A DNA stretch of 64,000 nt from Spirochaetia bacterium (GTDB taxonomy: Bacteria; Spirochaetota; Spirochaetia; UBA9216): the NCBI GenBank assembly GCA_965140585.1, contig OZ223265.1, positions 1 through 64,000 on the forward strand. Reading direction: 5' to 3'. This document shows positions 29,386 to 47,347 of this stretch, piece by piece (position 1 is the stretch's first letter; every line of letters starts with the position of its first letter). The notes under the pieces were generated by a model. That model searched no databases. It had not been told where the DNA came from and saw only the letters and a program-made list of their open reading frames with translations. Both the position numbers and the translations under genes were made by a program.

Positions 29386-29396
29386 AACCATTAAAA

Positions 29397-31311: not shown

Positions 31312-31347
31312 CTTCCATAAATTTACCCTATCTATAGCATCTATAGG

Positions 31348-31683
31348 TTAATAGAAATTATTTGATGGGATTTCTTCGATAACTAATTCTTGCATGAGTT
31401 TCAACTCTGTACGATAATTTACTTGATTTTGCTCCGTTTCCTTTAAAACCGTCAAAATCTCGAATATAAAGTTCTCTTCTCCTATCTCATTCCAATCCTT
31501 CAATAGTTGTTTATTCTGATGAGTTCCCATTTTCAATTCTAATGTGTGTCTATTCCATTTTGAGGTCATATCCAGACTACTATCAATCAATATCCTGTTA
31601 TTGGTAATATTTCTTATCTGGAAAACTCCCATCTGAGATTTCCTTTTCTTATATTCTTCCTTAAGTTCTTTTTTTGTCCTCAT
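31348..31683 (-). CDS. GIY-YIG nuclease-family small protein
   Basis: GVFQIRN...NRH...HQNKQL..DW...GEENF.FEIL pattern. Confidence 0.7.
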   Translation of the reverse strand: MRTKKELKEEYKKRKSQMGVFQIRNITNNRILIDSSLDMTSKWNRHTLELKMGTHQNKQLLKDWNEIGEENFIFEILTVLKETEQNQVNYRTELKLMQELVIEEIPSNNFY

Positions 31684-31684
31684 T

Positions 31685-32359
31685 TTACTTTCCACTAATA
31701 TATTCGAGATATCTTTCTGCTGGCATTAATTCCATACGAAGTCCATCTAAAACATCTTCTGAAACATTATCTTTTTTCCCGATTGCCGCCCCAGCTTTAT
31801 TAACATAATTCAAGTAATTATCAACCATTTCCATTACATCATTTTTTTTGCTTTGCAATAGCATTCCACAATTTCGATATATTTCCAGAATAGGATTGGC
31901 AGCAGCAACCACTTTCTTTATTGTTTTGAAATTATTATCACCAGGGAATCCTGCATTTGATATGATTACTATATCAGGATTCTTGTTTGTTTTATTCTGC
32001 ATATCATAATTACCATTACCTTCAACTACAGCAAAACTCTTTAATGGTATCAATCGGTCTATAAAGTTTTTAAGACAAGCAGTCATATCCCATGTATAAA
32101 CCGGTGTGGCATAACAAACAACATCTGACTGTTTATAAGCGTCAATCAGTTCCTTCATATCATCGTTATATACACACTGGCTATATTCTGTACGCCAACA
32201 AGAAAAACATCCTTTGCAATGATTTATTTTTTTATCAATTAAAAAGTAGTTTGTTACTTCTGCACCTGAAGACTCAGCCCCCTCTTTAAATGCATTTACA
32301 ATTATATTAGTATTGCTATTTTTTCCACGAGGACTTCCGTTAAAAATTGATATTTTCAT
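31685..32359 (-). CDS. Iron-sulfur flavoprotein / NADPH-dependent FMN reductase
   Basis: NGSPRG..SNT, CxxCxxCW...C, TPVY, KNFIDR. Confidence 0.85.
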   Translation of the reverse strand: MKISIFNGSPRGKNSNTNIIVNAFKEGAESSGAEVTNYFLIDKKINHCKGCFSCWRTEYSQCVYNDDMKELIDAYKQSDVVCYATPVYTWDMTACLKNFIDRLIPLKSFAVVEGNGNYDMQNKTNKNPDIVIISNAGFPGDNNFKTIKKVVAAANPILEIYRNCGMLLQSKKNDVMEMVDNYLNYVNKAGAAIGKKDNVSEDVLDGLRMELMPAERYLEYISGK

Positions 32360-32922
32360 ATTATTATTTCCTTAATCAAATCAATATGCTTCTCGATTTC
32401 AGTTTCAGTCATTATTAAAATGGTTGATGAAGTTTTTAAGCTATCCCAAAAGTGAAGAATATGTTTTGCGACGACTTCAATATCAAAACTTTTGAACTCG
32501 CCCCTACTCTGACCATAACTAAAAATCTTTGATAATATTTTGCATGAGTTTCTAACTCTTTCATTGAAATATTCTTGATAATCTGGTTCTATGAAAGCAA
32601 ATTCATGAATTGCAAAATAAAAGCCTTTCGTTTTACTAAATACAGCCCTTTTTTCATGATTTAAATAATGTTGAAAAATATCGATTGCAGGAAAATTATT
32701 TTGTATAGCCTCATTGACCGCAGTACTATTAATCTCAATATCTCTATTTAGAATTTGAATAAAGATATCTTTCGTCGAGGAGAAATATCTATAAAGTCCA
32801 CCGCGACTTAGTTCTGTAGATTCACAAATATCTTGCATTGTTACTTTTGCATATCCTTTAATTGCGAAAAGTTCATATGCTTTCTCGAGAATATTTTCTT
32901 TGGTATTTTTCCCCTTGTTCAT
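32356..32922 (-). CDS. TetR/AcrR-family regulator
   Basis: N-terminal HTH (GGLYRYFSSTKD). Confidence 0.9.
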   Translation of the reverse strand: MNKGKNTKENILEKAYELFAIKGYAKVTMQDICESTELSRGGLYRYFSSTKDIFIQILNRDIEINSTAVNEAIQNNFPAIDIFQHYLNHEKRAVFSKTKGFYFAIHEFAFIEPDYQEYFNERVRNSCKILSKIFSYGQSRGEFKSFDIEVVAKHILHFWDSLKTSSTILIMTETEIEKHIDLIKEIII

Positions 32923-32946
32923 AGCATTCCTTTCATACACAAAAAC

Positions 32947-33005
32947 GACACTCGTGTCTTTTTATGTATGAAACTCAATTTACGACACCAGTGTCGCTTT
33001 GTCAA
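32947..33005 (-). promoter_or_regulatory. tetR promoter with two GACAC-N2-GTGTC operators
   Basis: TTGACA(33005-33000)-17-TAAATT; palindromes at 32983-32996 (inside the spacer) and 32947-32958. Confidence 0.7.
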
Positions 33006-33100
33006 GCTTTTTCCGTTATTTATGTAAGATTTCCAATTATCTATGCGTTAAATTTAAAAGAGTATTAATTGTACCTGAATGTGATATATACCCGTCTGCC

Positions 33101-33240
33101 ATTTAACGACGTTTTGAGCTGCCTGACGGCGCGTGTCTTCACGCGCATTGGCGTGATTCTGGAGTGGAGCGCGATCAGCGCGAAACGTCTCTGCCAGAAT
33201 CATGACAATAGCCAGGACTGCTCCAAAACTTTTGTTATAA
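33101..33240 (-). repeat. attC-like palindromic element (140 bp)
   Basis: TAAC...GTTA ends, paired arms with two unpaired bases, conserved inner stems shared with 34153-34280 and 35098-35245. Confidence 0.75.
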
Positions 33241-33375
33241 ATAGTTTTTCCTATATATCATACTACATTCACAATTTTACTTTAAATGAAACATACTATA
33301 TTCTTCATATAAACATACTTTTTTACTTCCACTGGGGTTATAAAAGTTATAGATTTACTGATAAGTTAAGAATTT

Positions 33376-33993
33376 CTATTTCCATCTATTTGTTAGGATA
33401 TGTTGATTAATATCTAATTCCTTCTGTGGAATTTCTTTGATCCTATCTTTTTTATATCCAATAGGAATAATCGATGCAATCTCGAATTCATTTGGAATTC
33501 CTAATATTTCTTTAACAGCTTCAGTATTTTTTGGAATAAATGTTACTCCAAATATATTTTTCTCAGCCAATGAAAGTAATAGGTTTTCTATTGCACACCA
33601 AATAGAAGCAAATCCATTAATATCATAAACTCGGATAGCATCTTTAATATCTGTTTTTGGCTTATATATTACTACAATTGATAAAGAGGCTTCCAAGATC
33701 ATTCGTTTCTGTTTTGGAATTGCATCAAAATACATCTTTTGGGCGATTGGATCATGGTCCTTAAACAATACTTTCATTTCTTCAGATATTGTTTCATACA
33801 TCTCTTCTGTTTGAGTAAGTTTAACCTTTTGCTCAAAATCATCAATTATTAAAAAATACCATTGTTTTAGATGATCGTAAGTTGGAGCAAGAAAGGCATC
33901 ATTGATTGCTTCTTTTATTACATTAATATCTAATTCTTGATCTGAAAAATCACGTATGGTTCGTCTTCTCATGATTACCTGTTTAAATTCCAT
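33376..33993 (-). CDS. Nitroreductase-family protein
   Basis: RRTIRDF, AP...QW.F, AIENLLL motifs. Confidence 0.88.
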   Translation of the reverse strand: MEFKQVIMRRRTIRDFSDQELDINVIKEAINDAFLAPTYDHLKQWYFLIIDDFEQKVKLTQTEEMYETISEEMKVLFKDHDPIAQKMYFDAIPKQKRMILEASLSIVVIYKPKTDIKDAIRVYDINGFASIWCAIENLLLSLAEKNIFGVTFIPKNTEAVKEILGIPNEFEIASIIPIGYKKDRIKEIPQKELDINQHILTNRWK

Positions 33994-34152
33994 AGTTGCG
34001 TCCTTATATACTATAAAGATTATCAAGATATTTTAGTGTTTTATTATATATTCTTTAAATCTTCGCTACCATTGGGATTCCTTATTGTAATCCCTATTTT
34101 AATGATTTCCTATTTTTTTATTGACACAATATTTTAATTTATCCGTTTCCTC

Positions 34153-34280
34153 ATTCAACTGTAAAAACCGACCGAGTCTTCGAGGCATGGCACAGTTCTG
34201 GAACGTAGTGCGAGCAGCGCGGAGTGTCTTTAGCCAGAACTGTGTCAAAGGTTTTGACTACTCCAAATCTCTTGTTATGT
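34153..34280 (-). repeat. attC-like element, one arm degenerate
   Basis: Same inner stem (CACAGTTCTGG/CCAGAACTGTG) and GTTA end; about 20 bp downstream of the lysE stop. Confidence 0.62.
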
Positions 34281-34299
34281 GCTAATTTAATTATTTTTT

Positions 34300-34920
34300 T
34301 TAATCCTCAAAAGCTAATTTACCAGCAAATCCTATTAGCAATATTCCAAAACTTTGCTCGATTCTCTTTAAAATTATAGGAGATTTCATTAATACTTTTT
34401 TAAACAGATTAGCCAGTAATCCATAAATACAGAATATAATAAATGTTAATACCATAAATATTAAACCCAAACTGATCATTTTGATCTTGGAATTTTCATC
34501 ATTTATATCAATAAATTGTGGTAAAAATGAGAAGAAAAATAATGTTAATTTGGGATTTAGAAGATTAATAAGTACTGCTTTAATAATTATATTTATATAA
34601 TTTTCCTTATCTTTATCTTGAATTTCAATAAGTTTTTTATTTCTAAGTAATCCTAAACTTATGTATAAAAGATATATTATTCCTATAATTTTTATTATTT
34701 TAAATATAATAGCTCCAGTGTTCATAACTGCGGATATGCCAAGAATTGCAGCAGTAATATGTGGTATTATTCCTAAAGTACACCCAAAAGCAGCCAAGAT
34801 TGCACGTTGTTTATTACTAGATAAACTTGTTGTTATTGTATAAATAACACCGGTTCCAGGAATAATAATAACAACTAATGAAGTAACTAAAAAACTTATA
34901 TTGAACACTATTTCCTCCAA
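34300..34920 (-). CDS. LysE/RhtB-family exporter
   Basis: PGTG, NLLNPK, FLPQF motifs. Confidence 0.9.
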   Translation of the reverse strand: MEEIVFNISFLVTSLVVIIIPGTGVIYTITTSLSSNKQRAILAAFGCTLGIIPHITAAILGISAVMNTGAIIFKIIKIIGIIYLLYISLGLLRNKKLIEIQDKDKENYINIIIKAVLINLLNPKLTLFFFSFLPQFIDINDENSKIKMISLGLIFMVLTFIIFCIYGLLANLFKKVLMKSPIILKRIEQSFGILLIGFAGKLAFED

Positions 34921-35097
34921 ATACTACGAAAGGTTATCTTAAAACTATATATCTTTCAGAAATCTCTATTAACCTTTTTATAGTTTATTTATACTATTCA
35001 AATTATTGATTCTATCCAATCCTTCTAATAATTTTTTATTTTTCGAATAATCTATTAGACATTTGTTAACCAAATTACTGAACGTTATCTTTTGTGC

Positions 35098-35245
35098 AAA
35101 TAACGACGAAATCAGTTGCGCCCTCGATCCTGAGCCGCAGGCGAAGGAATTGGCGCGGTTCTGGAGTGGAGGCATGATCAGTGCCGGAACGTCTCCGCCA
35201 GAACCGTGACAATAGATGGCGACAACTGCATTTCTCATGTTATCT
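35098..35245 (-). repeat. attC-like palindromic element (148 bp)
   Basis: AAATAAC...GTTATCT ends, AAATCAGTTGCGCC pairing with GGCG(A)CAACTG(C)ATTT. Confidence 0.75.
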
Positions 35246-35381
35246 TTCTGTATTTTATTTGATGAAGTACAGATATTTTCATTTCTCATAAGATTATCTC
35301 TACCTACTTATCTTTTACCTTTTGATATGGCAATTTCACTTATTACAGTCTGTGATCGTCATTATTTTTCCGATATATTTT

Positions 35382-35858
35382 TTACTTTTTTTGATCAATT
35401 TTCTGTGACATATATTTTTTCATGACATCTTTAGCCTTTTTCTCCGCCCATTCTTCCAGTCCTATTTTTTTTATTAAGCATAAATTATAGATCTTTGTAT
35501 TATGAGGTATAATATTTGCTTTATCAGCATAAGGCTGTAATTTATCGCATGGGAAATTATCACATTCACTACAGTTATGAATCTTTTTTTGCTCTACACA
35601 CAGATAAATAAAGCACTGTCCCTTTTTATTTAATAATAAGCATTTACCATTAGGAAAAACATTATTATGCTCGGAGAAATATCCGATTCCTTTTCGATCT
35701 CGACAACCATGGCAATCTGATTTTTCATAATCCAGACCTAATTTATTAGATATCTGCTTTTTTATCTGGTCATTAGATGTTGCCTTATATGCGCCACATT
35801 CAAAGCAGGGGATTCCACAAGGAGCTGTCATTTCTTTAAAATTCATTTGATCCTCCAT
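35382..35858 (-). CDS. Cys-rich DUF3795-like protein
   Basis: APCGxxCxxC, CxGC, CxxCxxFPC pattern. Confidence 0.7.
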   Translation of the reverse strand: MEDQMNFKEMTAPCGIPCFECGAYKATSNDQIKKQISNKLGLDYEKSDCHGCRDRKGIGYFSEHNNVFPNGKCLLLNKKGQCFIYLCVEQKKIHNCSECDNFPCDKLQPYADKANIIPHNTKIYNLCLIKKIGLEEWAEKKAKDVMKKYMSQKIDQKK

Positions 35859-35944
35859 AAACTATTCTTTCATTGATAGTTATTTGTTTTTCCCAATAGT
35901 ACATCTTGACAGGAGATTTAAAAATTGTCATATTTGACAAAATT

Positions 35945-36961
35945 ATGGCTAATTACGTCACTTTAAACAAAAAAAGAAAACGTATTATAATCTTGGCACT
36001 ACCAGGAACTCCTCTCATGTCTATCTCTTCTGCTATTGATGTATTCCAAAATGCTCCTGAAATTTTTAACAAAATCATGAATAACGAAAATCCAACCCCT
36101 TTTGACGTAGACTTAGTTTCACCATCAGGAGAATATATTCAGTGTATGGGAGGTTTTAGGCTTGAAGTAAATACTTCGATGAATGAAATCAAAAAAGCTG
36201 ATTTAGTCATAGTTACTTCATTATATTCGGAAGATGAAACAAAATTGTTTTTGCCAGAAATCCGTAAATGGTTACTTAAAATGCACCTTAGTGGTTCAAT
36301 GCTAGCCAGTTTCTGTACAGGTACATTTGTTCTAGCATCAACAGGATTATTAAACGGAAAGACTGCAACAACTCATTGGGCATCAGCAAGAAAATTATCA
36401 CAAAGGTACCCCCAAATTCATGTAAAGCCTCATAAAATGATTTGTGATGAAGGAACTATTTTTACATCAGGAGGAAGTCATGGAGCTCTTGATTTATGCC
36501 TCTATTTAGTTGAGAAGCTTTATGGAAAAGCTCTTGCTTTGAATTATGCTAAAATTTTAGTTCACGATATCTCTTTTACAGAACAATCAGCTTATGCTAT
36601 TTTCAAAGGCTTACGAGATCATAGAGATACGAAAATCTGGGAAATACAGGACTATATAGAATCTCATTATTCAGAACATTTAGGAATTTCTTATCTGGCT
36701 AATAAGGCTGCTATGTCACGCAGAACATTCGAACGTCGTTTTAAAGCTGCCACAGGAGAATCTCCAGGGGACTACATACAACAGCTGAGGATTGAAGCTG
36801 CTAAACGTATATTAGAAATGGAGTTCGATACATTTGAACAAATTACATTACGTGTGGGGTATGAAGATGCAACAACATTTAGTAAATTATTCTCTAAACG
36901 TGTTGGAGTAACCCCAACTTCTTATCGTAATAAATTCCATTCTGGACAAACTATTCCTTGA
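35945..36961 (+). CDS. GlxA/FtrA-family AraC regulator (DJ-1 domain + HTH)
   Basis: CTGTF, ATTHW, SRRTFERRF, VGYED motifs; divergent from the DUF3795 gene. Confidence 0.9.
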   Translation: MANYVTLNKKRKRIIILALPGTPLMSISSAIDVFQNAPEIFNKIMNNENPTPFDVDLVSPSGEYIQCMGGFRLEVNTSMNEIKKADLVIVTSLYSEDETKLFLPEIRKWLLKMHLSGSMLASFCTGTFVLASTGLLNGKTATTHWASARKLSQRYPQIHVKPHKMICDEGTIFTSGGSHGALDLCLYLVEKLYGKALALNYAKILVHDISFTEQSAYAIFKGLRDHRDTKIWEIQDYIESHYSEHLGISYLANKAAMSRRTFERRFKAATGESPGDYIQQLRIEAAKRILEMEFDTFEQITLRVGYEDATTFSKLFSKRVGVTPTSYRNKFHSGQTIP

Positions 36962-37367
36962 TATATTTTTTGCAATGCAATTTCGTTTTACATTTTTGTA
37001 AAGATAACATATTATATTTAATACTTTTCCATATAACTTGAAGTACACACAAGTTTTGAATATTCCATCTAACATACATAATTCACAATGTGGCTCACTT
37101 CTTAATAGACAGAAAATCATTTTCAGAAATTATTTCAATAAATATGTCGTCTCAAGCCCTTCTTTTTCTCAGTTATTATCTGTTTATTACTTTCATCCTT
37201 GTCTATAAGCTTCGAAATATTCTGCCGACTAAATATTAAAATTGCGCCTCTCTTTGTTGCGTAATTGTTCACATTATAACTTACCTCAACTGCAATCTGC
37301 GACGTTTATTCTATGGTAATATTATAGCCAGACTTTCTCCATATAATTAACAATCTACATTACAATC

Positions 37368-37422
37368 TCTCTTAACTACTATTAAATACCAGAATATCGG
37401 GTATTTAATAGTAGTTAAGAGA
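37368..37422. repeat. Perfect 23-bp inverted repeat with 9-nt loop
   Basis: TCTCTTAACTACTATTAAATACC / GGTATTTAATAGTAGTTAAGAGA. Confidence 0.9.
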
Positions 37423-37722
37423 CTCTGGATTATTATAGTTATCAAACTAACTTTTTCTTTTCCATTGACGAATATAACTATTCTATCCTGGCATATTCTT
37501 GAATAATCAGAATTTGCAGTCTATACATCAAGCGCAAAGAATCTCGTTCTTAAATACATCTGTATAGAAATGATATTAATAATAACGCCTGATAGACGGA
37601 AATAAAAGTATTTTTAAATGGTATAAATAAAGTGTTTAAATAATGCAATTTCTATCTGGATAAATGACACAAATTGAAGAGAAAATGATAGGATTGGAAA
37701 CTGATAGAGTTTCTTCCAAGAG

Positions 37723-38082
37723 TTAAGCGAGGTTTTCTCTCTCTTGCTTCTCTTCAATCTCTTTTTGAAGTCTCCCCTTACATCCTGCAATTATATCTCG
37801 AATTGAAGTCAATCCTGTTTCATCTATTATTGCAAGATCTTCGATAATGTCAGCATATCTCGGTGGTGGTGTCCATTTTGATTGTTTTTCTCCAGTAAGA
37901 AGGTATTCGATAGTCACACCTAAAGCGGAAGCAATCTTTCCAGCCTGATCGACATTAGGCATAGTATTCCTCTGAATCCAACGGCTAAATGTATCTTGTC
38001 GAACCGGAATTTTCGATGCAACCCAATCTTGAGTTGTATTTTGTCTTTTAATCTCTTCTTTTACTCGTTTCCAGAAGTCCAT
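37723..38082 (-). CDS. XRE-family HTH repressor (CI-like, no peptidase domain)
   Basis: TQDWVA...FSRW...IASALGVTIEYLLTG; divergent from early genes. Confidence 0.85.
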   Translation of the reverse strand: MDFWKRVKEEIKRQNTTQDWVASKIPVRQDTFSRWIQRNTMPNVDQAGKIASALGVTIEYLLTGEKQSKWTPPPRYADIIEDLAIIDETGLTSIRDIIAGCKGRLQKEIEEKQERENLA

Positions 38083-38101
38083 ATTGGTAATATCGGTATA
38101 A

Positions 38102-38183
38102 AATTAGGCAAAAGTGCATAAAAAGTTATTGACTATTTTGCATTTTTGCCTAATTATTAGATTATAAATTCGGCAAAAATGCC
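38102..38183. promoter_or_regulatory. Immunity region: three 17-bp operator-like sites
   Basis: AATTAGGCAAAAGTGCA (38102-38118), inverted copy 38139-38155, AATTCGGCAAAAATGCC (38167-38183), around TTGACT at 38129. Confidence 0.75.
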
Positions 38184-38361
38184 TAACGGCAACATTAGAT
38201 ATCCATTAGCGGTATATGTATCACTCTCAGAAAAAGCCATCATAGACTCATTCTTTCATTCTCGTCCAAGGCTTAAGAAAGGAGAATCGGTTAAGAAATG
38301 GATTCTTGAAGCAATTGAGTGTGAAGATAACAATAATTCTCAAGAATCCGCTCATTCATAA
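38179..38361 (+). CDS. Small Cro-position protein, possibly ribbon-helix-helix
   Basis: First gene divergent from the repressor; beta-helix-helix pattern. Confidence 0.5.
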   Translation: MPNGNIRYPLAVYVSLSEKAIIDSFFHSRPRLKKGESVKKWILEAIECEDNNNSQESAHS

Positions 38362-38661
38362 ATCGGTTATAAAAGAAATTCAACCCCTCAATGGGTATCA
38401 GTTGCGTTGCTCTGATTGTTGGATTTCTTATCAAAACTTTGCCACAGGAGTAATGGTTTTCTAATCTTAATAACATGCAAACATTATTTACGGTCGAAAA
38501 GCGGCGACTACTCCGTTTTACAAATTATTTCGAATTAATTTTTTGTATGAGTTATTGCAGATGAACAGCTGAGATGCATGTTTTTACTACTTCATTGAGC
38601 ATCATCCAGCATCAAGGTTGTTCATCTGTTTCTTGATTGATTCAGGAGGTAATGGGTATCT

Positions 38662-38844
38662 ATGAGCGAAAAGATTAAACGAAAAAGAATAAATCTATTG
38701 CTTCCAGAAGATCTTCTAAAACGAGCTGAATCCGTAGGAGCTTTGAAACACAAAAGCCTCACAGCTTATATCACAGACTTGATCTATACAGATGTAACAA
38801 ACAAAGAGAAGGCAAATATAAACTCCTTCTTTGGGAATGATTAG
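38662..38844 (+). CDS. Ribbon-helix-helix DNA-binding protein
   Basis: GGAGG RBS; KRINLLLPEDL...SLTAYI pattern. Confidence 0.65.
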   Translation: MSEKIKRKRINLLLPEDLLKRAESVGALKHKSLTAYITDLIYTDVTNKEKANINSFFGND

Positions 38845-38845
38845 C

Positions 38846-38904
38846 GGTATCAAGGTGGAATACATGAGTATTTCAAAGCTCAGGTTCGATTCCTGAAAAT
38901 ACCA
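38846..38904 (+). ncRNA. Minimal tRNA-like fold (acceptor + T-arm, no D-arm), ending ACCA
   Basis: GGTAT/ATACC acceptor-like pairing; TCAGG-TTCGATT-CCTGA T-arm. Confidence 0.45.
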
Positions 38905-39215
38905 TACGGCATACGGTGAGCCTTTGTTGATGAGTGAGAAACACCATACCAGTTGAGAAATAAATACCATCAACTTAGGCAAGACCAAGCCTGCAGACCT
39001 TGAGTAAGTCTGCAGCCCTCCGGGACCGGGTGAAAGCCCCGGATTTTTATAAGGCGGGTAAAATAATGAATAACAAAGAACTTGAATCAGCATAAGAAAT
39101 TGATAGTGCATGAGGCTAAAGGCTGTTTCAGGTCATTCTGAACATGTGCTTAAGGTGGGATGGTTTTTCGATGATAAATGAGCCGCACCTTTTTTAAAAA
39201 CACAGAATCATCGGT

Positions 39216-39311
39216 TGGAACGTGATGCAGTTGGAAAGCATGGGTCGGGACAGGAAAGTCCCGGAGAGTTTTACTCTCCCCTTATCGTCCGTTCAAATCG
39301 GACCGTTCCAG
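39216..39311 (+). ncRNA. tRNA-like RNA with canonical acceptor, D- and T-arms but a branched anticodon domain
   Basis: TGGAACG/CGTTCCA, U8, ATGC-AGTTGGAAA-GCAT, GTCCG-TTCAAAT-CGGAC; two hairpins replace the anticodon arm. Confidence 0.65.
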
Positions 39312-39350
39312 TACTTTTAGAATTTTGAAACATCTTTTTAGGAGGTATGT

Positions 39351-39539
39351 ATGCCGGAAGTAGAGATCACCTTAAGTGAAAAAGAAGCAGCTGAAATTCT
39401 TGATAGTTTAACTTTCATCGAATCAAAGAGTAGGCAAATGTCGCTTGCAACAAGTCAGATGGATTCAAGACTTCTGCAGATTTCCCATCATGCACAGAGG
39501 ATATCTGAGAAGCTGAAAGATAAAGGCGTTGTTGTATGA
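39351..39539 (+). CDS. Phage hypothetical protein
   Basis: AGGAGG RBS; ATGA overlap with bet. Confidence 0.7.
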   Translation: MPEVEITLSEKEAAEILDSLTFIESKSRQMSLATSQMDSRLLQISHHAQRISEKLKDKGVVV

Positions 39540-40528
39540 ACACTGAGCATGCCCTGGCTGTGATTAATGAGCAGAAGATCATCGAATACTTGGATATTAC
39601 CGGTACCGGATCAAACCTTACGGATAACGAAAAGCGGCAGTTTATCGAGGTAGCAAAGGGATGTAACCTAAACCCTTTCAAAAGAGAAATCTACTGCCTG
39701 GCATACGATACACAGGATGGCCGGAAGTTATCAATCATCACAGGGTATGAGGTGTATCTTAAACGGGCGGAGCGGACTGGGATGCTTGATGGATGGAAAG
39801 TTGAGGTTAAAGGTTCGAGGAAAGATAATACTTTCCGGGCTATTCTAACAATCTTTCGGAAGGACTGGGATAAACCATTCATCCATGAGGCATACTTTGT
39901 TGAGTATAACCAAAGAAAGGCGCTATGGAAAACCAAGCCCATCACCATGATTAAAAAGGTAGCCATAGCCCAGGGTTTTAGGATGTGCTTCCCCGACATC
40001 TTTTCAGGCATGCCCTACACCGCCGAGGAATCAGGAGAAGACTTCCGGAACATCACACCAGAGGATTCTTCAGATGATGTTATGCAGCCGAAACCTGAGT
40101 CCTTTGAACCTGTCACAGATCCAGATAGCCCAGATTACATACCAGAAGATGATTACATCTTAAAACCAGAAGATTTCCAAATCGAAGATGCAGACAATAC
40201 CCCGGATTACGAGACTCCTGAAGATAAACACCAAACAATCGGTATACCAGCTGATGAAGCCAAACAGAGTCATATTGATATGGATTTCATTCATGAGGTT
40301 GAAGCCAGGGCAGATGAGATTCGGCAGTTTGCAGAAGCTCACAGAGAGTATATCAGGCCTGATGCATATGCGGCTCTTAATGATCTTGATATAAGAGCTT
40401 TGAAACAAGATGAACCTCATTTATACCTGGACTCAGTTTCAGAGAGGTTGAGAAATACCGTGAAACTTCGAATTGAACAAAAGAAGAGTAAACAAACCGG
40501 AACCCTTGAGAATCCGGAAATCTTTTAA
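39536..40528 (+). CDS. bet: Phage recombination protein Bet (RecT-family single-strand annealing protein)
   Basis: LNPFKREIY, W...P.TMIKKVA.AQGFR..FP...SG.PY..EE motifs. Confidence 0.88.
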   Translation: MNTEHALAVINEQKIIEYLDITGTGSNLTDNEKRQFIEVAKGCNLNPFKREIYCLAYDTQDGRKLSIITGYEVYLKRAERTGMLDGWKVEVKGSRKDNTFRAILTIFRKDWDKPFIHEAYFVEYNQRKALWKTKPITMIKKVAIAQGFRMCFPDIFSGMPYTAEESGEDFRNITPEDSSDDVMQPKPESFEPVTDPDSPDYIPEDDYILKPEDFQIEDADNTPDYETPEDKHQTIGIPADEAKQSHIDMDFIHEVEARADEIRQFAEAHREYIRPDAYAALNDLDIRALKQDEPHLYLDSVSERLRNTVKLRIEQKKSKQTGTLENPEIF

Positions 40529-40549
40529 ACACATAGGAGATAGAATATT

Positions 40550-40795
40550 TTGAAAATAGGAGCCTGTTGGATAAAGAAATCCAGTACCAATAATGAAACC
40601 TACCTATCCTGCGCACTTGAGATAGTCCCAGTTGAGCTAATGCTTGGAAGCAAAAACTTTGCACTTTTCAAGAACAAGGAAAAGAAAAAAGCTGAACAGC
40701 CGGATTATATAATCTCATTCAATCCACAAAAGCCTTCAAACACCCAGTCTAATAACAACAGCTATGGCGATTTTGAGGATGATATTCCCTTCTAA
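40550..40795 (+). CDS. DUF736-like ssDNA-binding protein with SSB-type acidic tail
   Basis: IGACW..K, N..K....PDY motifs; C-terminal FEDDIPF. Confidence 0.65.
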   Translation: MKIGACWIKKSSTNNETYLSCALEIVPVELMLGSKNFALFKNKEKKKAEQPDYIISFNPQKPSNTQSNNNSYGDFEDDIPF

Positions 40796-40806
40796 GGTCG
40801 GAAACA

Positions 40807-42126
40807 ATGAAAAGTCATCTGATGCAGGTAACAGACAGCACAGCCTTTCTCAAAAACGTTCCGGATAACACTTTCACCGCCTGTGTCACTGATGGTCCTT
40901 ATGGAATATCGTTCATGAACTCAGCCTGGGATACTTTCAATCCGGAAGTCCTTAGAGAAAAGATTGAGACAAATAAAAGCACCTTCCAGGGGAAAGAAGT
41001 CAGAAGACCTGCATGTGAGGCTGGACGATACAACCGGGATTTGGAATCAAACAGGGCTTTCCAGGCATGGTGTGAATCATGGGCCTCTGAAGTTTTACGC
41101 ACAGTAAAACCCGGCGGGATTCTTCTTTCATTTTGCGGACCGCGGACATATCACCGGATGGTTGCAGGTATTGAGGATGCAGGATGGATTGTCAAAGATA
41201 CCATGATGTGGATTTATGGTTCTGGGTTTCCAAAGTCTCACAATATCGGAAACTCTGTTGATAAGCAGCTTGGATGTTCAAACCGCGGTCATGCAATAAG
41301 CAGTGGAAACAAGTACCACCCTTCAACTGGTATTGCCAGAGCCTCCGGGGATAAACTTTCAAAGTACCAGGGAAGAACACAAGAAGGTTCTATTTGGGAA
41401 GGCTACGGAACAGCGCTTAAACCTGCTTATGAACCCATAGTTCTTGCTATGAAACCTCTTGATGGAACCTATGCAAACAATGCACTTACCTGGGGAGTTT
41501 CTGGGATAAACATCGATGAAACCAGAATTGAGAATAACGACCGGGAACTCTACGGGATTTCCGGGGATGAAGGGAAAACAAAGGTTTCCTGTTACAAGGA
41601 CCGTGAGCGGGTCTCATATGTTCCTAATGAGCTTGGCCGCTGGCCATCAAACATCCTCCTTGAGCAATATTCCAGAGGTTACCTTGATGCTCAGGCTGAT
41701 GAGAATATAAGCCGGTTTTTCTATTGTTCAAAATCAAGCAAAGCAGAACGGGAAGCAGGCCTATCTGATTTCGAATCCTTCCAGGTAAATGACGGCCGGA
41801 AATCAGAGATTGATAATGCCTACCAGCGCGGAGAGACCAGAAGAAAGAATATCCACCCTACAGTGAAACCTCTATCAGTTATGAGGTACCTGGTGAAGCT
41901 TGTTAAGATGCCTAAAGACAACCACATCCTTGATTTATTCATGGGTTCAGGGACTACCGGCTGTGCATGCGCACTTGAAGGGATAGAAGAGTTTACCGGG
42001 CTTGATAAAACCCCTGATTACCTTCCAATTGCAGAGGCACGAATCAAACACTGGGAAAAGGTTTCAGTTCGGGGGAAAGATTTTGACGAGCTGCAGGGGG
42101 ATTTATTCAATGCTGTTTGCTCATAA
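40807..42126 (+). CDS. Phage DNA methyltransferase (N4/N6, beta class)
   Basis: TDGPY (DPPY variant), YGSGFPKS, HPTVKP, DLFMGSGTTG. Confidence 0.88.
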   Translation: MKSHLMQVTDSTAFLKNVPDNTFTACVTDGPYGISFMNSAWDTFNPEVLREKIETNKSTFQGKEVRRPACEAGRYNRDLESNRAFQAWCESWASEVLRTVKPGGILLSFCGPRTYHRMVAGIEDAGWIVKDTMMWIYGSGFPKSHNIGNSVDKQLGCSNRGHAISSGNKYHPSTGIARASGDKLSKYQGRTQEGSIWEGYGTALKPAYEPIVLAMKPLDGTYANNALTWGVSGINIDETRIENNDRELYGISGDEGKTKVSCYKDRERVSYVPNELGRWPSNILLEQYSRGYLDAQADENISRFFYCSKSSKAEREAGLSDFESFQVNDGRKSEIDNAYQRGETRRKNIHPTVKPLSVMRYLVKLVKMPKDNHILDLFMGSGTTGCACALEGIEEFTGLDKTPDYLPIAEARIKHWEKVSVRGKDFDELQGDLFNAVCS

Positions 42127-42138
42127 GGTTGTAATCTG

Positions 42139-42606
42139 ATGGAAAAACTGAAACTAAAAGTCCTTCCTGCAAGCTCTAAAGACCCGCTTACAATCTCTTT
42201 CACCATCGAAAGAGAGGACCTGTATCTAACCAAGGCCTTTTATAAACAATACATCACTCCATGTCTTGATCATTATCTCACCATTGAAGTTAAGAAATGG
42301 TACCGGGAAAGAAGCCTCAATCAGAACAAGCTCTGGCACAAGATGCTCCGGGAACTTTCGGCCGGGCTTCAAACAGATATGGAGCTTATAAAGCAGGGAA
42401 TAAAGGAAGTGGCTGCAGATGAATACGGCTACCCTTCAGCGGTTAACCCGTTTAATAAAAACCGAACACCAAAGCCAAGCAGCCAGGCGACTGTTAAAGA
42501 AATGGGAATACTCATTGAAACAACCTTCATCGAGGGAGGCCAGTCTGGAGTTGATTTATCTGAATACGCGAATGATTACAGGAAGCTTAAGAATGACAGA
42601 GCGTGA
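42139..42606 (+). CDS. NinB/Orf-like recombination protein
   Basis: RSLNQNKLWH and PSS.ATVKEM..LIE motifs. Confidence 0.6.
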   Translation: MEKLKLKVLPASSKDPLTISFTIEREDLYLTKAFYKQYITPCLDHYLTIEVKKWYRERSLNQNKLWHKMLRELSAGLQTDMELIKQGIKEVAADEYGYPSAVNPFNKNRTPKPSSQATVKEMGILIETTFIEGGQSGVDLSEYANDYRKLKNDRA

Positions 42607-42883
42607 ATCATTTAAGCTGCAGGAGCTTAAACAGAAGAAGTTTTTCATCCAGGGCGGTCAGTGCGCGGTCTGCGGGAAAATGCTTCTGGATGGTACTCCC
42701 CAGCTTGCTCACAGAATCCCTCAGTCAGAAATGTTTCTACAGAAATACGGGGAAGCGGTTATTCATCATGAGAAAAACCTGGTACTTGTGTGCAGTGGGA
42801 AGTGTAATGATTCAGTACTTATTCAGAATAACCCGGTGGAAATACAAAGGCTCATCGATGAGATAGAAGGAGAGATTTTATGA
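42593..42883 (+). CDS. HNH-like zinc-finger protein
   Basis: CAVC...AHRIP...NLVLVC...CN; start at ATG 42593. Confidence 0.6.
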   Translation: MTERESFKLQELKQKKFFIQGGQCAVCGKMLLDGTPQLAHRIPQSEMFLQKYGEAVIHHEKNLVLVCSGKCNDSVLIQNNPVEIQRLIDEIEGEIL

Positions 42884-43704
42884 ATGGACAGATGAAAAAT
42901 ATCCCAATGGAACAGGTCCGGTTTATTGGAAACATTCGTGATGCAGATATCGAGATTGATGAGCTGGCTTCATCGATTAAGTACCAGGGATTATTACAGC
43001 CGGTTGTTGTGAGTCAAACCGGAGAGGGATACAACCTCATTGCCGGACACAGACGATTTAGAGCCTGTACCCTTCTTGGATGGACTGAGATCCCCGCGGT
43101 AATCAGAGACTTTGAGAATAACCGGGCTGTACAGCTTACAGAGAACATCCAGCGCAAGGAAATGACCAAACTTGAGGAAAGTACTGCAGTCTATAACCTT
43201 ATGAAAGATATAAAAGTCAATAAATCAAGGCTTGGGAAAATCCTGGGACGAAATCCAAACTGGATTGATAAGCGCTTAAGCTTCTACGAGGTTCGGGAGT
43301 TTCTTCTGGGCGCTGGAATCCTTCCGCTGAAGCTCATTGATACTATGAGTTTTGATATCGCAAAAATCGTGAGCAAGTATAACAGAAAATACTGGTTGCA
43401 GTTATGCTCAAACCTTCTTGGTAAACGCTGGCTCCCTGAACAGATCCGTGCTTACTGTGAGAGTGTTACAAATCCTAATTACAAACCCGCTCAGAACAAG
43501 AAGCCTGGGAATAAATCTGAGAAACGTACTCCGGAGCCCGGTTCTGATAACAAGATAATCCTTGATCTTCTAAACAGTGAAGAGGATGAGTTTTCAATAG
43601 TCCTTGATAAGAAAGATCTTGTAATAAAGCTTATGTTCCCAACTGATAAAGGCTTCAAGACCGTTAGTAACATCCTTCAGAAAGTCGGTGGGGAAATACT
43701 TTGA
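42880..43704 (+). CDS. ParB/RepB/Spo0J-family protein
   Basis: GLLQPVVV, IAGHRR, ENIQR motifs. Confidence 0.88.
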   Translation: MNGQMKNIPMEQVRFIGNIRDADIEIDELASSIKYQGLLQPVVVSQTGEGYNLIAGHRRFRACTLLGWTEIPAVIRDFENNRAVQLTENIQRKEMTKLEESTAVYNLMKDIKVNKSRLGKILGRNPNWIDKRLSFYEVREFLLGAGILPLKLIDTMSFDIAKIVSKYNRKYWLQLCSNLLGKRWLPEQIRAYCESVTNPNYKPAQNKKPGNKSEKRTPEPGSDNKIILDLLNSEEDEFSIVLDKKDLVIKLMFPTDKGFKTVSNILQKVGGEIL

Positions 43705-43734
43705 AAAGCATCTATTAAACAAAAGGTTAATACT

Positions 43735-44787
43735 ATGGCAGATAAGAAATACTACTGGTTGAAACTTCAAAAGAACTTTTTCAAGCGGCATGATGTAAAA
43801 ATAATCAAGGCAATGGATAACGGATTACAGCATGTTCATAACTACCTGCAGTTGATGCTTGAAAGCATTGATCATGAAGGCACCCTTCGATTCAGTGATG
43901 AAATACCCTATACCGTTTCAATGCTTGCCGCGGTCATCGATGAGGATAAGGACACCTTAGAAAAGACTTTTGAAATTCTCAAGTCTTTCAGGCTGCTTGA
44001 AATCTGGGATGACGGGACCATCTTTCTTACAAAGATTCCGGAAATGCTTGGTTGCGAAAGTGAAGCTGCAGAAAGAGTCCGGAAGTACCGGGAGAAGAAA
44101 CAATCTGAATCTGATGATTCCTCAGAGGATGACCAGGGAGAAAGTTCTATGGATGAACCTGATAACTACCCAGAAAATCCATGTAACGAGGATGTAACAG
44201 ACCCCGCGTTACATTGTAACAACGCTGTAACATCATGTAACGCGCATGAAACGCCGTGTAACGGAGGTGAAACAAGCTGTAACGCTGATGTAACACAGAG
44301 TAAGAGTAAGAGTAAGAGAGAGATAAAGAGTAAGAGTATTAATATGGCGCCAGAGGCTGAGCCTCCCGCGCTTTTTGGTCCGGATGAGATTGAATCTCAG
44401 GAGGAGGCTCCCCCTTCCGGGGAAGAACCTCTGGGGAATATGCTTAGCTTTCCTGACCCTGATACTCTGCTTTATAACCGCGTGAAAGATCTCTTTGAAC
44501 AAAAGCAGCCTCAAGGTAAGTTCACCAACTACGGCAAGGAAGGCGCTGCAATCAAGCAGCTCATCGCGAAATCAAGAGCCAGATCCCCAGATGATGATTT
44601 TCTAATCGGCATGATTCAGATGTTTGATAGACTTCGGGAACAGGAGGGCTTCTACAGGAAACAACCGTTTTTACCTTCGGCGCTCAATTCCTCCGGAATT
44701 TGGGATCGGGTACTCAATGCGGCACAGTTAATCTGGGTAGAGGGACAAACTCTCAAGGACATGGAGGAAGAGGAGATACTATTTTGA
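43735..44787 (+). CDS. Phage replisome organizer / replication initiator
   Basis: YYWLKL..NFF N-terminal domain, AERVRKYR, internal iterons. Confidence 0.85.
   Translation: MADKKYYWLKLQKNFFKRHDVKIIKAMDNGLQHVHNYLQLMLESIDHEGTLRFSDEIPYTVSMLAAVIDEDKDTLEKTFEILKSFRLLEIWDDGTIFLTKIPEMLGCESEAAERVRKYREKKQSESDDSSEDDQGESSMDEPDNYPENPCNEDVTDPALHCNNAVTSCNAHETPCNGGETSCNADVTQSKSKSKREIKSKSINMAPEAEPPALFGPDEIESQEEAPPSGEEPLGNMLSFPDPDTLLYNRVKDLFEQKQPQGKFTNYGKEGAAIKQLIAKSRARSPDDDFLIGMIQMFDRLREQEGFYRKQPFLPSALNSSGIWDRVLNAAQLIWVEGQTLKDMEEEEILF
44182..44338 (+). repeat. Probable replication origin: TG(T/A)AAC iterons plus AGAGTA repeats
   Basis: Ten direct copies at 10-11 bp spacing inside the initiator gene. Confidence 0.75.
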
Positions 44788-45209
44788 CTGTTGAAAAGTT
44801 TATATCAAAGATTCAGGGATCATACGGGACCTACTCTGCAGGTCAGCTGACTGTTGTAAAACAGTACCTTGAAAAACAGAAACCGGCACTTATTGAGTAT
44901 TTATATGCTGAAGTCTTAAAAACTGTCTCCTGGCAATACAAGACCCCACCAGGGCCCAAAGAGTTTGAACAGGCTATGAAGAATGTGAAAGTCCGGCCGG
45001 AACTCAGGATTGAGTTACAGCCTGCCCCTGTACTGAAACTTGATGAACCAGAAGTCCCTGCAGAGGAGGCAAAGAAGTTCTTTGATGAGCTTAAGAGAGT
45101 CACCAGTAAAAAGAAGCCTGAAGGGAGGGTCATTGACTATGCAGAGCGAAAAGCTCAGCTGCAAAGACAAGCTGTTACCCTGCAGGATAAAGCGGCATCG
45201 ATGCGATGA
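44784..45209 (+). CDS. Phage hypothetical protein (helicase-loader position)
   Basis: TTGA overlap with the initiator stop; function not recognisable. Confidence 0.6.
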   Translation: MTVEKFISKIQGSYGTYSAGQLTVVKQYLEKQKPALIEYLYAEVLKTVSWQYKTPPGPKEFEQAMKNVKVRPELRIELQPAPVLKLDEPEVPAEEAKKFFDELKRVTSKKKPEGRVIDYAERKAQLQRQAVTLQDKAASMR

Positions 45210-45225
45210 GCTTGGAGATTGTATC

Positions 45226-45483
45226 ATGAAATTCTTAAAAGAGTTCTTAATCAATCTGGGTGCCCTACTGGCTGCACTGGTTCTGCTTTTCTTTCCGGAA
45301 ATCATTGCAGCAATTGCGTGTAGCTTTTTCGGTGTTTCGGAGAATGCTGGTTGGTGGATTGTTCTTATCGGGTTGATTCTTCAGATTGCGGGTGGCATCA
45401 CCCTTGTACATTTCCTGTTTCCTGAAGGAATGGTTATCTCTGAATCGAAAACTGTCATAACTGAAATCAAGGGAGGTAGATAA
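45226..45483 (+). CDS. Small two-TM membrane protein
   Basis: GGAG RBS, two hydrophobic segments. Confidence 0.6.
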   Translation: MKFLKEFLINLGALLAALVLLFFPEIIAAIACSFFGVSENAGWWIVLIGLILQIAGGITLVHFLFPEGMVISESKTVITEIKGGR

Positions 45484-45487
45484 CATC

Positions 45488-45628
45488 ATGATTCACTGGG
45501 CCTGGCTTTTACTGATATTCCCTGCATCTTTTTTGAGTTTCATTATGGGGGTGATTATCGCTCACGGTATGCAAATTGAAGTGATTCTCGCTCCTGCAGG
45601 AAAAGAAACCGTGGAGGATAGAACATGA
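45488..45628 (+). CDS. 46-aa single-TM protein (not in ORF track)
   Basis: GGAGG RBS; MIHWAWLLLIFPASF...; ATGA overlap with the next gene. Confidence 0.55.
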   Translation: MIHWAWLLLIFPASFLSFIMGVIIAHGMQIEVILAPAGKETVEDRT

Positions 45629-46011
45629 AAAAGGTGAAACAGTCTGTATGGACATTTCGAAAATCCTATTGCCGGAAACTGCTTAACCAGATATTCCGGA
45701 AAGACAATATCTGTCCAGACTGTGCTGGGCACGGTATCTCACTTGCATTCTGTGATTACGTTGATGAATCGAAAAATGGGCTTGAGATCCTTAAGTGTAG
45801 AAGATGCGCGGGCAAAGGTCATATCTCTTTCGTCATGAAAGACTGGATTGAAAAAGGTCTGCAGCTTCGAACGCTCATGCTTGAGAACCACTGGTCATTT
45901 AAGGATGTGTCGAAGCTTACCGGTTTCGGGGTAGTTGCTGTATCTGATGCGAAACATGGATATTCAGACCCCACTCCTGTACTTGAAGCACTCCCCGGAG
46001 GTTTCAAATGA
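45625..46011 (+). CDS. Zinc-finger (CxxCxGxG x2) protein with HTH-like C-terminus
   Basis: CPDCAGHG and CRRCAGKG motifs. Confidence 0.6.
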   Translation: MKKVKQSVWTFRKSYCRKLLNQIFRKDNICPDCAGHGISLAFCDYVDESKNGLEILKCRRCAGKGHISFVMKDWIEKGLQLRTLMLENHWSFKDVSKLTGFGVVAVSDAKHGYSDPTPVLEALPGGFK

Positions 46012-46039
46012 AACCACTTTCACAAGGATTGTTACAGAT

Positions 46040-46435
46040 ATGAGTAAATCTATTACAAAAACACCGGAAAAAGTTACAGATTCCCCGGATCATATAACAA
46101 AAGTCCTGGCAATTCTCACAAAGGTTGATTCCCAGAGATTGAAACCTGAAGCAGCTGTAGAAGAGATTGAGGAGGTATTTGCAGAACTCTATGCACCGGT
46201 AGTCACCCCGGTTATAAACACCTTGATTGAAGGATTCAGGACGCTTGTTCAGATGTATCCGGAACTCATAGACGGTTCATCACCTGAAAGTCAGCTGAAG
46301 CACTGCGGCACATGTGATAATTGGGCGGGTGCTGTTTACCAATGTATGTCTGAGATTGATGAGGAGGTAGGATACTTCGATTGTGCATGTATGGGTAAGC
46401 ACTGGGTACCAGAGACATCCGGGGAAAGGATATAA
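46040..46435 (+). CDS. Phage hypothetical protein with Cys-rich C-terminus
   Basis: CxxC...C...C cluster; AAGGA RBS. Confidence 0.55.
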   Translation: MSKSITKTPEKVTDSPDHITKVLAILTKVDSQRLKPEAAVEEIEEVFAELYAPVVTPVINTLIEGFRTLVQMYPELIDGSSPESQLKHCGTCDNWAGAVYQCMSEIDEEVGYFDCACMGKHWVPETSGERI

Positions 46436-46436
46436 G

Positions 46437-46895
46437 ATGCAAAACCGGCTTAAAATGTTGTTCTTCCGGATAATGCTCCTTGGTTGTGTGAACATGTACC
46501 AGAGTTTTGATTATCCGGAAAACCTTCTCCCCGGGATCACCTATTACCTACTTTCACTATTCTGTGCATATCATATTGTCAGAGTACATGGGGATAGAAA
46601 GGGTTGGAAAATAATCCTGGATGAAAGTATTTCAATATTCCTTGTTGCATTTGCCCTGTATCCGTTTTCTGAGTTTATACACTTTGGGAATGTCTATCTA
46701 TGGATGGGGATCATATTGTTACTCTATTTCATGAGTAAGAGGATTGGAAACCCGGGAATTGAAAACCGTATTTCCGGGGATTACAGCATCGGTAAAAATC
46801 GACAGTCTGTAGCGTTTTATTTGAAGGAAGTTAATCATTTTTCTACAGACAGGAAAATGAATAAACCTGTGGATTGCTCCACTGTCGATATTTAA
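46437..46895 (+). CDS. Hypothetical membrane protein
   Basis: About four hydrophobic segments. Confidence 0.5.
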   Translation: MQNRLKMLFFRIMLLGCVNMYQSFDYPENLLPGITYYLLSLFCAYHIVRVHGDRKGWKIILDESISIFLVAFALYPFSEFIHFGNVYLWMGIILLLYFMSKRIGNPGIENRISGDYSIGKNRQSVAFYLKEVNHFSTDRKMNKPVDCSTVDI

Positions 46896-47299: not shown

Positions 47300-47347
47300 T
47301 GTTCATTAAGAGGATGCTGAAATAAAACATAGGATTATTACAACAGT

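Follow-up and report, generated by a model that had tools for sequence, protein, structure and literature searches.

Punctuation of polycistronic transcripts by tRNAs is familiar from mitochondria, from bacterial tRNA-mRNA co-transcripts and from RNase P sites in operon mRNAs. RNase P releases the c4 antisense RNA of phages P1 and P7 from the leader of an operon, and the vtRNAs of gammaherpesvirus 68 and mascRNA are eukaryotic non-decoding tRNA look-alikes that undergo RNase P and RNase Z maturation and CCA addition. We describe here a 96-nt tRNA-shaped element at positions 39216-39311 of a 64,000-nt stretch of DNA from a Spirochaetia bacterium (contig OZ223265.1 of assembly GCA_965140585.1, forward strand, positions 1 to 64,000; the window). 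Its shape is tRNA-derived and non-decoding, it lies on the sense strand of the repressor-controlled early operon of an integrated, phage-like island, and it belongs to a recurrent class; it is probably a processing signal or a small RNA, not a decoder.

The element resembles each of these systems in part. As in tRNA punctuation, a tRNA shape stands between sense-strand genes in a host that has an RNase P/RNase Z route; the known punctuating units are, however, working tRNAs, whereas the element cannot decode and its cleavage is only proposed. Like c4, it would be an RNA of a phage regulatory region that RNase P must recognise by its tRNA-like shape, but c4 has no full cloverleaf, and for the element neither an Rfam match nor an antisense target was found. 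In vtRNAs and mascRNA a tRNA chassis serves RNase P/Z maturation and CCA addition without decoding, as we propose for the element, but these RNAs are eukaryotic, arise in RNA polymerase III or long non-coding RNA contexts, have shortened rather than forked anticodon arms and show no phylogenetic link. A bacterial case is tRNA-Other of Bacillus cereus, reported as a pseudo-tRNA beside a genomic island that has no role in translation and affects gene expression (PMC3399842); it too is a bacterial tRNA-shaped RNA tied to an island and with a non-decoding role. By description, the cloverleaf of tRNA-Other still has its anticodon arm and the RNA gene flanks its island, whereas the window element has a forked body and lies inside an early operon. 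Phage rescue tRNAs are likewise tRNA-type RNAs with altered anticodon arms encoded by mobile elements: tRNA-Lys of T5 counters PARIS (PMC11464382), and a phage tRNA-Thr counters P2 OLD, which cuts anticodon stems (PMC12445682). These rescue tRNAs decode and replace the cut host tRNA, while the element has no anticodon. None of the known systems compared combines a forked body with a full tRNA core, and the literature searched, by titles and abstract openings, held no description of such early-operon elements.

Structure of the element and its reading by tRNA detectors

With canonical bacterial and phage tRNA genes (RF00005) the element shares its acceptor stem, U8, D arm, variable loop, T arm, discriminator and a gene end that does not encode CCA. 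A preliminary description of the locus had listed a 7-bp acceptor stem, U8, a D arm with A14, GG (G18G19) and A21, a 5-nt variable loop and a perfect T arm, and every one of these was found at its place (Table 1). What a tRNA should have and the element lacks is a 5-bp anticodon stem with a 7-nt loop bearing U33 and a purine at position 37. Two hairpins stand where this arm belongs, and the middle of the molecule measures 45 nt against the expected 23. The linear order is TGGAACG, T, G; ATGC-AGTTGGAAA-GCAT; GGG, T; hairpins 1 and 2; CCC, TTATC; the T arm; CGTTCCA, G. All 30 base pairs of the fold as first proposed are Watson-Crick, with no mismatch or wobble, 14 of them in the part that replaces the anticodon arm; the stems are intact, as had been claimed, unlike those of a decaying pseudo-tRNA. 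The predicted minimum free energy (MFE) structure (-41.4 kcal/mol, z-score -3.9) retains the acceptor stem, the T arm and both hairpins and folds the D region otherwise. Pair probabilities under the nearest-neighbour model are 0.8-1.0 for the four retained helices, in agreement with the earlier claim of two perfect hairpins and no 7-nt anticodon loop.

By default, ARAGORN called tRNA-Phe as the only tRNA in the window, and Rfam at gathering thresholds did likewise; at E<=10 no match to RF00005 or to any other family fell on the element. Decoding readings appeared under relaxed settings. With introns allowed, ARAGORN reported Ser(GGA), hairpin 1 serving as the anticodon arm and hairpin 2 as a long variable arm, by treating GGGA as a 4-nt intron and tolerating a U.U pair. 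At lowered thresholds it reported Lys(UUU), for which hairpin 2 must open into a loop of 7 nt (GUUUUAC) above a longer stem, with hairpin 1 as an extra arm, the calls being built on different acceptor stems. The hairpin 1 loop, AGGAAA, does resemble the loop of the host tRNA-Ser(GGA), TTGGAAA, and G73 and G2-C71 fit Ser or Gln acceptor identity. We do not find either reading credible: the loop of hairpin 1 measures 6 nt and lacks U33, that of hairpin 2 is closed to 3-5 nt with probability 0.8-1.0, and the sole reading with a 7-nt loop would open two stable pairs on an over-long stem. The element also fails as a class II tRNA, since it lacks a canonical anticodon arm combined with a long variable arm and leaves the extra GGU and CCC without a place. 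The refolding into a class II tRNA with a valid anticodon that the preliminary description had considered did not occur, as Ser(GGA) needs an invented intron. The tRNA-like domain of tmRNA, for which G3.U70 is the rule, was rejected as well; the element carries G3-C70, and ARAGORN's only tmRNA sits on contig C6. With ARAGORN and Rfam silent, no valid class II refold and relatives free of random decay (see below), the proposal of a non-decoding tRNA-shaped RNA is supported, and we regard the element as very likely to be real and non-decoding.

A strict shell descriptor (T arm, adjacent 7-bp acceptor stem, U8, 4-bp D stem, D loop with A..GG..A, free middle of 17-60 nt) matched 29 places on both strands of the 4.85-Mb genome. 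The middle was of canonical length (22-23 nt) in 28 of them, and the element was the sole oversized shell. No match was obtained in 20 shuffled genomes; chance origin of the shell is excluded. The element is single-copy in its own genome, a search of which did not find its hairpins as genomic repeats. A relaxed descriptor (5-bp T stem with >=3 G-C pairs, loop TTCRANN, and the next 7 nt pairing with <=1 mismatch 55-135 nt upstream), applied here with a slightly wider length range, gave 28 matches uncalled by ARAGORN in 9.7 Mb of strand. Only three of these had a perfect acceptor, namely the element and a pair on contig C7. The C7 pair are similar 52-nt mini tRNA-likes lying 4.3 kb apart (599200-599251 and 603514-603565, + strand), each made of a T arm and a 7-bp closing stem; ARAGORN calls neither. 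Two further places in this genome deserve mention. Positions 256259-256346 (+) of contig C7 repeat the 3' portion of tRNA-Arg(CCT), a tRNA encoded in full on contig C1, and are probably the far end of another tRNA-integrated island. The ARAGORN tRNA-Ala(CGC) at 58213-58285 (-) of contig C5, with an odd acceptor, -17.4 kcal/mol and no cloverleaf, may be a false call or a pseudo-tRNA.

Sequence homologues were sought widely. The custom covariance model that had been suggested for this purpose, a single-sequence model of the element (model R1), was run over 151 genomes of the class and retrieved no homologue; its non-self matches were four ordinary tRNAs and one poor 105-nt match that is not a tRNA. 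Three of the four tRNAs were tRNA-Gln(UUG), and the acceptor of the element differs from that of the host tRNA-Gln(UUG) by one compensated pair, with G73 common to both; likeness to tRNA-Gln is accordingly confined to the chassis and does not extend to the D arm and body. Over its whole length the element is not close to any host tRNA, and derivation from one was rejected. A 24-nt chassis pattern with <=3 mismatches found the element only among 401 genomes, and model R1 at default filters found nothing at 80 RecT loci. In 11 genomes of the family and order the model gave no match and BLAST a single 20-nt match inside a coding region. That match, to the D arm, is exact (locus L002, 1499-1518; G005:C28:47974-47993), lies in an apparent coding sequence of a same-family genome with no tRNA shape around it and, at E 0.002 per genome, is probably due to chance.

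Searches of mobile-element and metagenome collections ended similarly. In phage records, blastn of 38700-39900 gave no match, and blastn of 39210-39316 gave only 19-25-nt T-arm matches to phage tRNAs and one 22-nt match to a single-stranded RNA phage record. Plasmids gave only chance matches of 20-32 nt to the element region. Pattern scans of IMG/VR (two exact strings, a loop-only pattern and a D-loop/T-loop pattern) returned nothing, and a scan of JGI metagenomes returned eight matches, none tRNA-like by model R1 or ARAGORN, which we attribute to chance. Neither RecT nor the repressor of the island, taken as single proteins, had relatives in IMG/VR; alignment of the repressor there gave nine loci, three of which repeat the elements of genome G078 described below and six of which had no early-side shell.

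Rebuilt tRNA look-alikes at related prophage loci

The region around the element has relatives even where its sequence does not. When 38000-39560 was compared by blastn with 401 genomes of the class, only the N-terminus of the CI-like repressor and the operator region matched, at 70-76% identity, in four other genomes; downstream of those switches, on the same strand, lay weak matches to the model that ARAGORN did not call. Relatives of the repressor occur at 54 places in 42 of the 401 genomes. We surveyed about 4 kb on each side of the repressor at 46 of these loci, from 37 genomes of one bacterial class, with the relaxed descriptor; the eight places omitted were one inside L107, one with only 658 nt of early side and the six weakest matches.

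On the early strand of the early side (173.7 kb) there were 13 matches, 11 of them uncalled by ARAGORN. The opposite strand of the same 173.7 kb held one match, a tRNA-Ala. Behind the repressor (161.2 kb per strand), the forward strand held five matches, all ordinary tRNAs, and the reverse strand one, which was uncalled, GC-rich and coding-looking. The control compartments combined (496 kb) thus contained seven shells, six of them ordinary tRNAs and one uncalled. In 300 shuffles of the early side the mean was 0.17 matches, and 0.027 with a perfect acceptor, compared with 13 and 7 observed. The 11 uncalled shells are the window element and those designated L106, L107b, L108, L109b, L141, L142, L151a, L151b, L170 and L172; the remaining two early-strand shells are tRNA-Met in L107 and tRNA-Ser in L150, where ARAGORN and Rfam additionally call a tRNA-Met, so that the slot in some relatives is occupied by true tRNAs. 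Rfam calls a tRNA in two of the 11, L141 (41.9 bits) and L107 (38.2 bits over 139 nt). We define the class by a place between ORFs on the strand of the early operon, at 0.4-2.4 kb from a homologous switch of the CI type, and ORF maps place most of the uncalled shells in gaps between same-strand ORFs. The window element has the same properties, with a perfect acceptor, 95 nt by the descriptor, on the early strand and between ORFs. By these comparisons it is one instance of a class that recurs in related prophages of the same bacterial class, and the relatives at these loci do not show random decay.

A second association is with RecT, which lies within 4 kb at five of the loci; in four of the five a tRNA look-alike is found 225-550 nt upstream of it. 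At 80 RecT loci from many phyla the relaxed descriptor gave eight matches on the RecT strand (five ordinary tRNAs, the L172 element, a 100-nt look-alike in a Fibrobacter contig and one likely false match) and one on the other strand, which looks false. The Fibrobacter look-alike (L058, ~5522-5621, +) is an aberrant, ARAGORN-uncalled shape about 2.5 kb downstream of RecT with an expanded D region; its acceptor, GGGAACG/CGTTCCC, shares six of seven positions with that of the window element. Adjoining RecT at L055 (4160-4245), ARAGORN reports a 'tRNA-???' with a 2-nt anticodon.

While the shell recurs, the bodies of the class are wholly different: their lengths run from 51 to 139 nt, the hairpins number one to three, and a D arm may be present or absent. 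Genome G078 provides a natural body swap between two of its prophages, L107 (G078:C1, ~2697.8-2700 kb) with 139 nt and L141 (G078:C1, ~2130 kb) with 104 nt. They are ~95-100% identical from +1765 to +3700, RecT included, and identity collapses only at +2063 to +2180, a stretch that coincides precisely with the look-alike's body. Its flanks of 40 nt do not differ at all, and in the acceptor and T arm there is a single pair-preserving change, G.U to G-C in the acceptor stem. L108 and L142 show the opposite: the elements are identical at 89 of 91 positions between flanks of 89.6% identity, and one of the two changes turns U.G into U-A in the acceptor stem. From these two comparisons we conclude that the chassis is kept while the body is cassette-like and exchangeable.

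The island, its switch and its early operon

The 44-nt 3' end of tRNA-Phe recurs at the far end of the island, which therefore spans ~30 kb (Table 1). The stretch from the CI-like repressor to the first rightward ORF contains an operator-like motif of 16-20 nt in three copies, both direct and inverted, which flank a promoter-like site in the layout of a classic genetic switch, and this region, as read from its motifs, appears to be the switch that drives the early operon. Rightward from it follow two small ORFs of ribbon-helix-helix (RHH) type, a terminator-like hairpin, the element, a 62-aa orphan ORF and RecT. The element lies at +1134 from the repressor start, between an RHH ORF and the 62-aa ORF. 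It had been placed 40 nt before the recombination genes, which is true of the 62-aa ORF (ATG at 39351) but not of RecT itself, which starts at 39536. The 62-aa ORF has no Pfam or PHROG family and, among 5.8 billion proteins, matches only itself; RecT has 2371 relatives, the best at 47-50% identity. The island also encodes a DNA methylase, NinB/Orf-like, ParB-N, a replisome organiser, a Dam methylase and signalling genes, and it carries low-GC cargo genes, redox and efflux cargo, and c-di-GMP/two-component genes. Its genes read normally under code 11. Pfam and PHROG scans recognised no virion genes in it.

Table 1. Coordinates of the element, its parts and the surrounding features in the window.
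Feature	Position	Strand	Sequence or basis
tRNA-Phe	29312-29386		ARAGORN
Integrated island, ~30 kb	29342..59395		44-nt direct repeat of tRNA-Phe 3' end
44-nt direct repeats	29342-29385 and 59352-59395		repeat search
Integrase	29491-30687		follows tRNA-Phe
CI-like repressor	37723..38082	-	Pfam Phage_CI_repr and HTH_3; divergent from early operon
Operator-like repeats (D3, I3, I6) around promoter-like site	38101..38186		repeat and promoter scans
Promoter-like site	38129-38157	+	TTGACT-17-AATTAT; promoter consensus scan
Candidate second, minimal tRNA-like (weak)	38846..38908	+	T arm TCAGG-TTCGATT-CCTGA (38880-38896), one hairpin, 5-bp closing stem
Terminator-like hairpin, then T run	39026..39042	+	consensus scan; upstream of element
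tRNA-shaped element, 96 nt	39216..39311	+	sequence, shell descriptor, fold energies
Acceptor stem, 7 bp	39216-39222 / 39304-39310	+	TGGAACG/CGTTCCA
U8 equivalent	39223	+	T
D arm, 4-bp stem	39225-39241; stem 39225-39228 / 39238-39241	+	ATGC/GCAT
D loop	within 39225-39241	+	AGTTGGAAA, bearing A14, GG (G18G19), A21
Closing helix	39242-39244 / 39279-39281	+	GGG/CCC
Hairpin 1	39246-39263	+	CGGGAC-AGGAAA-GTCCCG; 6-nt loop
Hairpin 2	39264-39278	+	GAGAG-TTTTA-CTCTC; 5-nt (or 3-nt) loop
Variable loop, 5 nt	39282-39286	+	TTATC
T arm, 5 bp	39287-39303	+	GTCCG-TTCAAAT-CGGAC; ends in G53-C61 equivalent, TTCRANN loop
Discriminator (G73)	39311	+	G
U-rich trailer and Shine-Dalgarno of next ORF	39312..39350	+	TACTTTTAGAATTTT...; AGGAGG at 39340-39345
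62-aa ORF	39351..39539	+	ORF list; overlaps RecT start
RecT-family recombinase	39536..40528	+	Pfam PF03837, E 2.8e-26

The candidate second tRNA-like lies directly after an RHH ORF at offset +764 from the switch, as the L106, L108 and L109 elements do; its fold z-score is -2.4, and its Rfam tRNA score of 18.3 bits (E 1.1) is below cut-off. A 41-nt repeat of 71% identity (38216-38256 and 38792-38832) lies inside two 60-aa ORFs (38179-38361 and 38662-38844), which on this likeness may be paralogues. To the eye, hairpin 1 resembles the upstream terminator; this likeness was dropped, as the repeat finder did not report it. Of three sequencing runs under the same organism label, one contains the 2-kb stretch and probably consists of the data behind the assembly itself; of the words sampled from the stretch the other two contain almost none, which is not evidence of absence.

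Processing signal, mimic or relic

We favour a processing signal or small RNA over a decoder because related prophages hold rebuilt tRNA look-alikes at the same spot. The features that tRNA-maturation enzymes read are kept in the element: a 7-bp acceptor on a 5-bp T stem, the T loop and the GG of the D arm, together with U at -1 (T at 39215), U8, G73, the U-rich trailer and the absence of an encoded CCA. None of the 46 host tRNA genes encodes CCA, and the host has a type A RNase P RNA (266 bits), an RNase Z (354 bits, over cut-off) and two genes of the CCA/poly(A)-polymerase family; in this sense both ends of the element follow the design of a tRNA gene of the host. The acceptor/T stack is the recognition unit of tRNA-processing enzymes such as RNase P and RNase Z, and since this is also the conserved part of the class, we rank processing by these enzymes first as the core function of a non-decoding tRNA-derived module, at a probability of about 0.5. 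The element would be transcribed together with the early operon, RNase P would cut its 5' end, and RNase Z would then cut after the discriminator, with CCA added. Such cutting would detach the recombination/replication mRNA from the regulatory leader and so punctuate the early transcript, and it would free a stable RNA of ~96 nt whose rebuilt lower half would carry any specific activity. The preliminary description had offered a decoy or a processing signal; the processing half is favoured by the conserved chassis in related prophages, while the variable body, hypervariable in one pair, would leave room for a decoy-like role in trans.

Several points weigh against processing as the function of this element, or against parts of the structure. 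The proposed cloverleaf-like fold is predicted at -37.1 kcal/mol, 4.3 above the MFE. The GGG/CCC helix said to close the two hairpins is complementary in its letters, but it is worth only 1.3 kcal/mol and its predicted pair probability is near 0, G39263 partnering C39279 to lengthen hairpin 2 instead of closing hairpin 1; the closing helix of the fork is, by this model, the weakest part of the observed structure. Calculated thermodynamics alone favours neither the D stem nor this helix. However, the D stem is also absent from the MFE structure of 17 of 46 genuine host tRNAs, and thermodynamics neither confirms nor excludes the cloverleaf core. No sequence homologue of the element was found in any collection searched, and its own helices consequently offer no covariation. 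L110, the closest relative of the switch and of RecT, has no such element. The loci are not independent: four of the ten positive loci belong to G078, and the positives thus come from seven of 37 genomes. Conservation of the chassis is partly built into the descriptor, which demands an intact T arm and acceptor; only the enrichment relative to controls and the bias towards one strand do not depend on this demand. Transcription of the element is an assumption, because the terminator-like hairpin at 39026-39042 separates it from the early promoter and the consensus scan predicted no promoter just upstream. None of the sequencing runs listed for this organism is of RNA. Finally, the hypervariable body in the L107/L141 pair argues that processing is not the whole story.

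The cassette-like body is the reason for keeping a trans-acting tRNA mimic as the main rival. The freed RNA would bind a tRNA-recognising protein (perhaps a defence nuclease directed against tRNAs, a system that senses them, or an enzyme of their modification or charging) and block or titrate it, the rebuilt body setting specificity; this is compatible with RNase P/Z processing. L107 and L141, near-identical over about 2 kb except in the look-alike body and with the chassis kept, show the pattern expected of a specificity cassette, and a place in the early operon would bring expression first. Phage tRNAs do counter tRNA-cutting defences, but these known cases are decoding tRNAs that replace cut ones, and none is a decoy (PMC11464382; PMC12445682). 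Nor does the element present an anticodon loop for loop-reading nucleases to bind, and Pfam and PHROG scans of neighbouring ORFs turned up neither a tRNA-related enzyme nor a defence gene. We consider the mimic unlikely, if the best of the alternatives. A broader form of it, which we put forward as speculation of rather low probability, would see a family of 'chassis-and-cassette' tRNA mimics in the temperate elements of the class, with the forked RNA of the window as one allele. In such a family the acceptor/T arm might recruit RNase P, RNase Z and the CCA enzyme, and a fast-evolving body might replace the D and anticodon arms. The body could conceivably be the specificity part of an early inhibitor or decoy, swapped between prophages under arms-race selection. 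Candidate targets, equally tentative, are defence nucleases that cut tRNAs, sensors of tRNA, or a synthetase; SerRS, for example, recognises the long extra arm and not the anticodon.

The element might instead be a relic: an insertion or rearrangement would have scrambled the anticodon region of a phage tRNA gene that is now functionless. Its singleton status, the ordinary tRNAs (L107 Met, L150 Ser/Met) that occupy the same slot in some relatives and the closeness of its acceptor to tRNA-Gln(UUG), itself among the best non-self matches of the model, all suit a relic. But the extra 22 nt form two stable hairpins, not disorder, the acceptor changes in relatives keep pairing, and a relic is hard to square with 30 perfect pairs, 14 of them new, and with a strong excess of uncalled shells on the early strand only; we think it doubtful.

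A cis-acting RNA that binds a protein or polymerase, as in nut- or put-like antitermination, or a site acting at the DNA level, in either case only looking like a tRNA, is very unlikely. The early operon, the terminator-like hairpins nearby, the abutting hairpins and the purine-rich loop of hairpin 1 would suit such a signal; the full set of tRNA tertiary contacts and a 12-bp acceptor/T stack are not needed for one, the element lies downstream and not upstream of the terminator-like site, and no antiterminator protein was recognised by Pfam and PHROG scans. An unusual decoding tRNA of the Lys(UUU) or Ser(GGA) kind has, given the intron, the U.U pair and the foreign acceptor stems these calls demand, a very slim chance of being correct. 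A c4-like antisense regulator, embedded in the operon, trimmed by RNase P and pairing through its loops with downstream mRNA, was rejected as most improbable, for despite the similar place (early/immunity operon, upstream of the regulated genes) and a tRNA-like RNase P substrate, the best duplexes of the loops or the whole fork with 38100-42200 were no better than those of shuffled probes, and nothing matched at E<=10 in Rfam, which we take to hold a C4 family.

Standard annotation overlooks this class, since ARAGORN calls none of its 11 members and Rfam two. If the look-alikes are processing signals, they would be a case of tRNA punctuation in bacterial prophages by units that no longer decode, and would explain how early operons become separately stable messages. 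If the variable body is the functional part, the class would represent a new type of small phage RNA on a tRNA chassis, with a bearing on the reasons for odd tRNAs in phages and on the expanding set of tRNA-targeting defences. Either way, the class offers a concrete set for testing, including a natural body-swap pair within the single genome G078.

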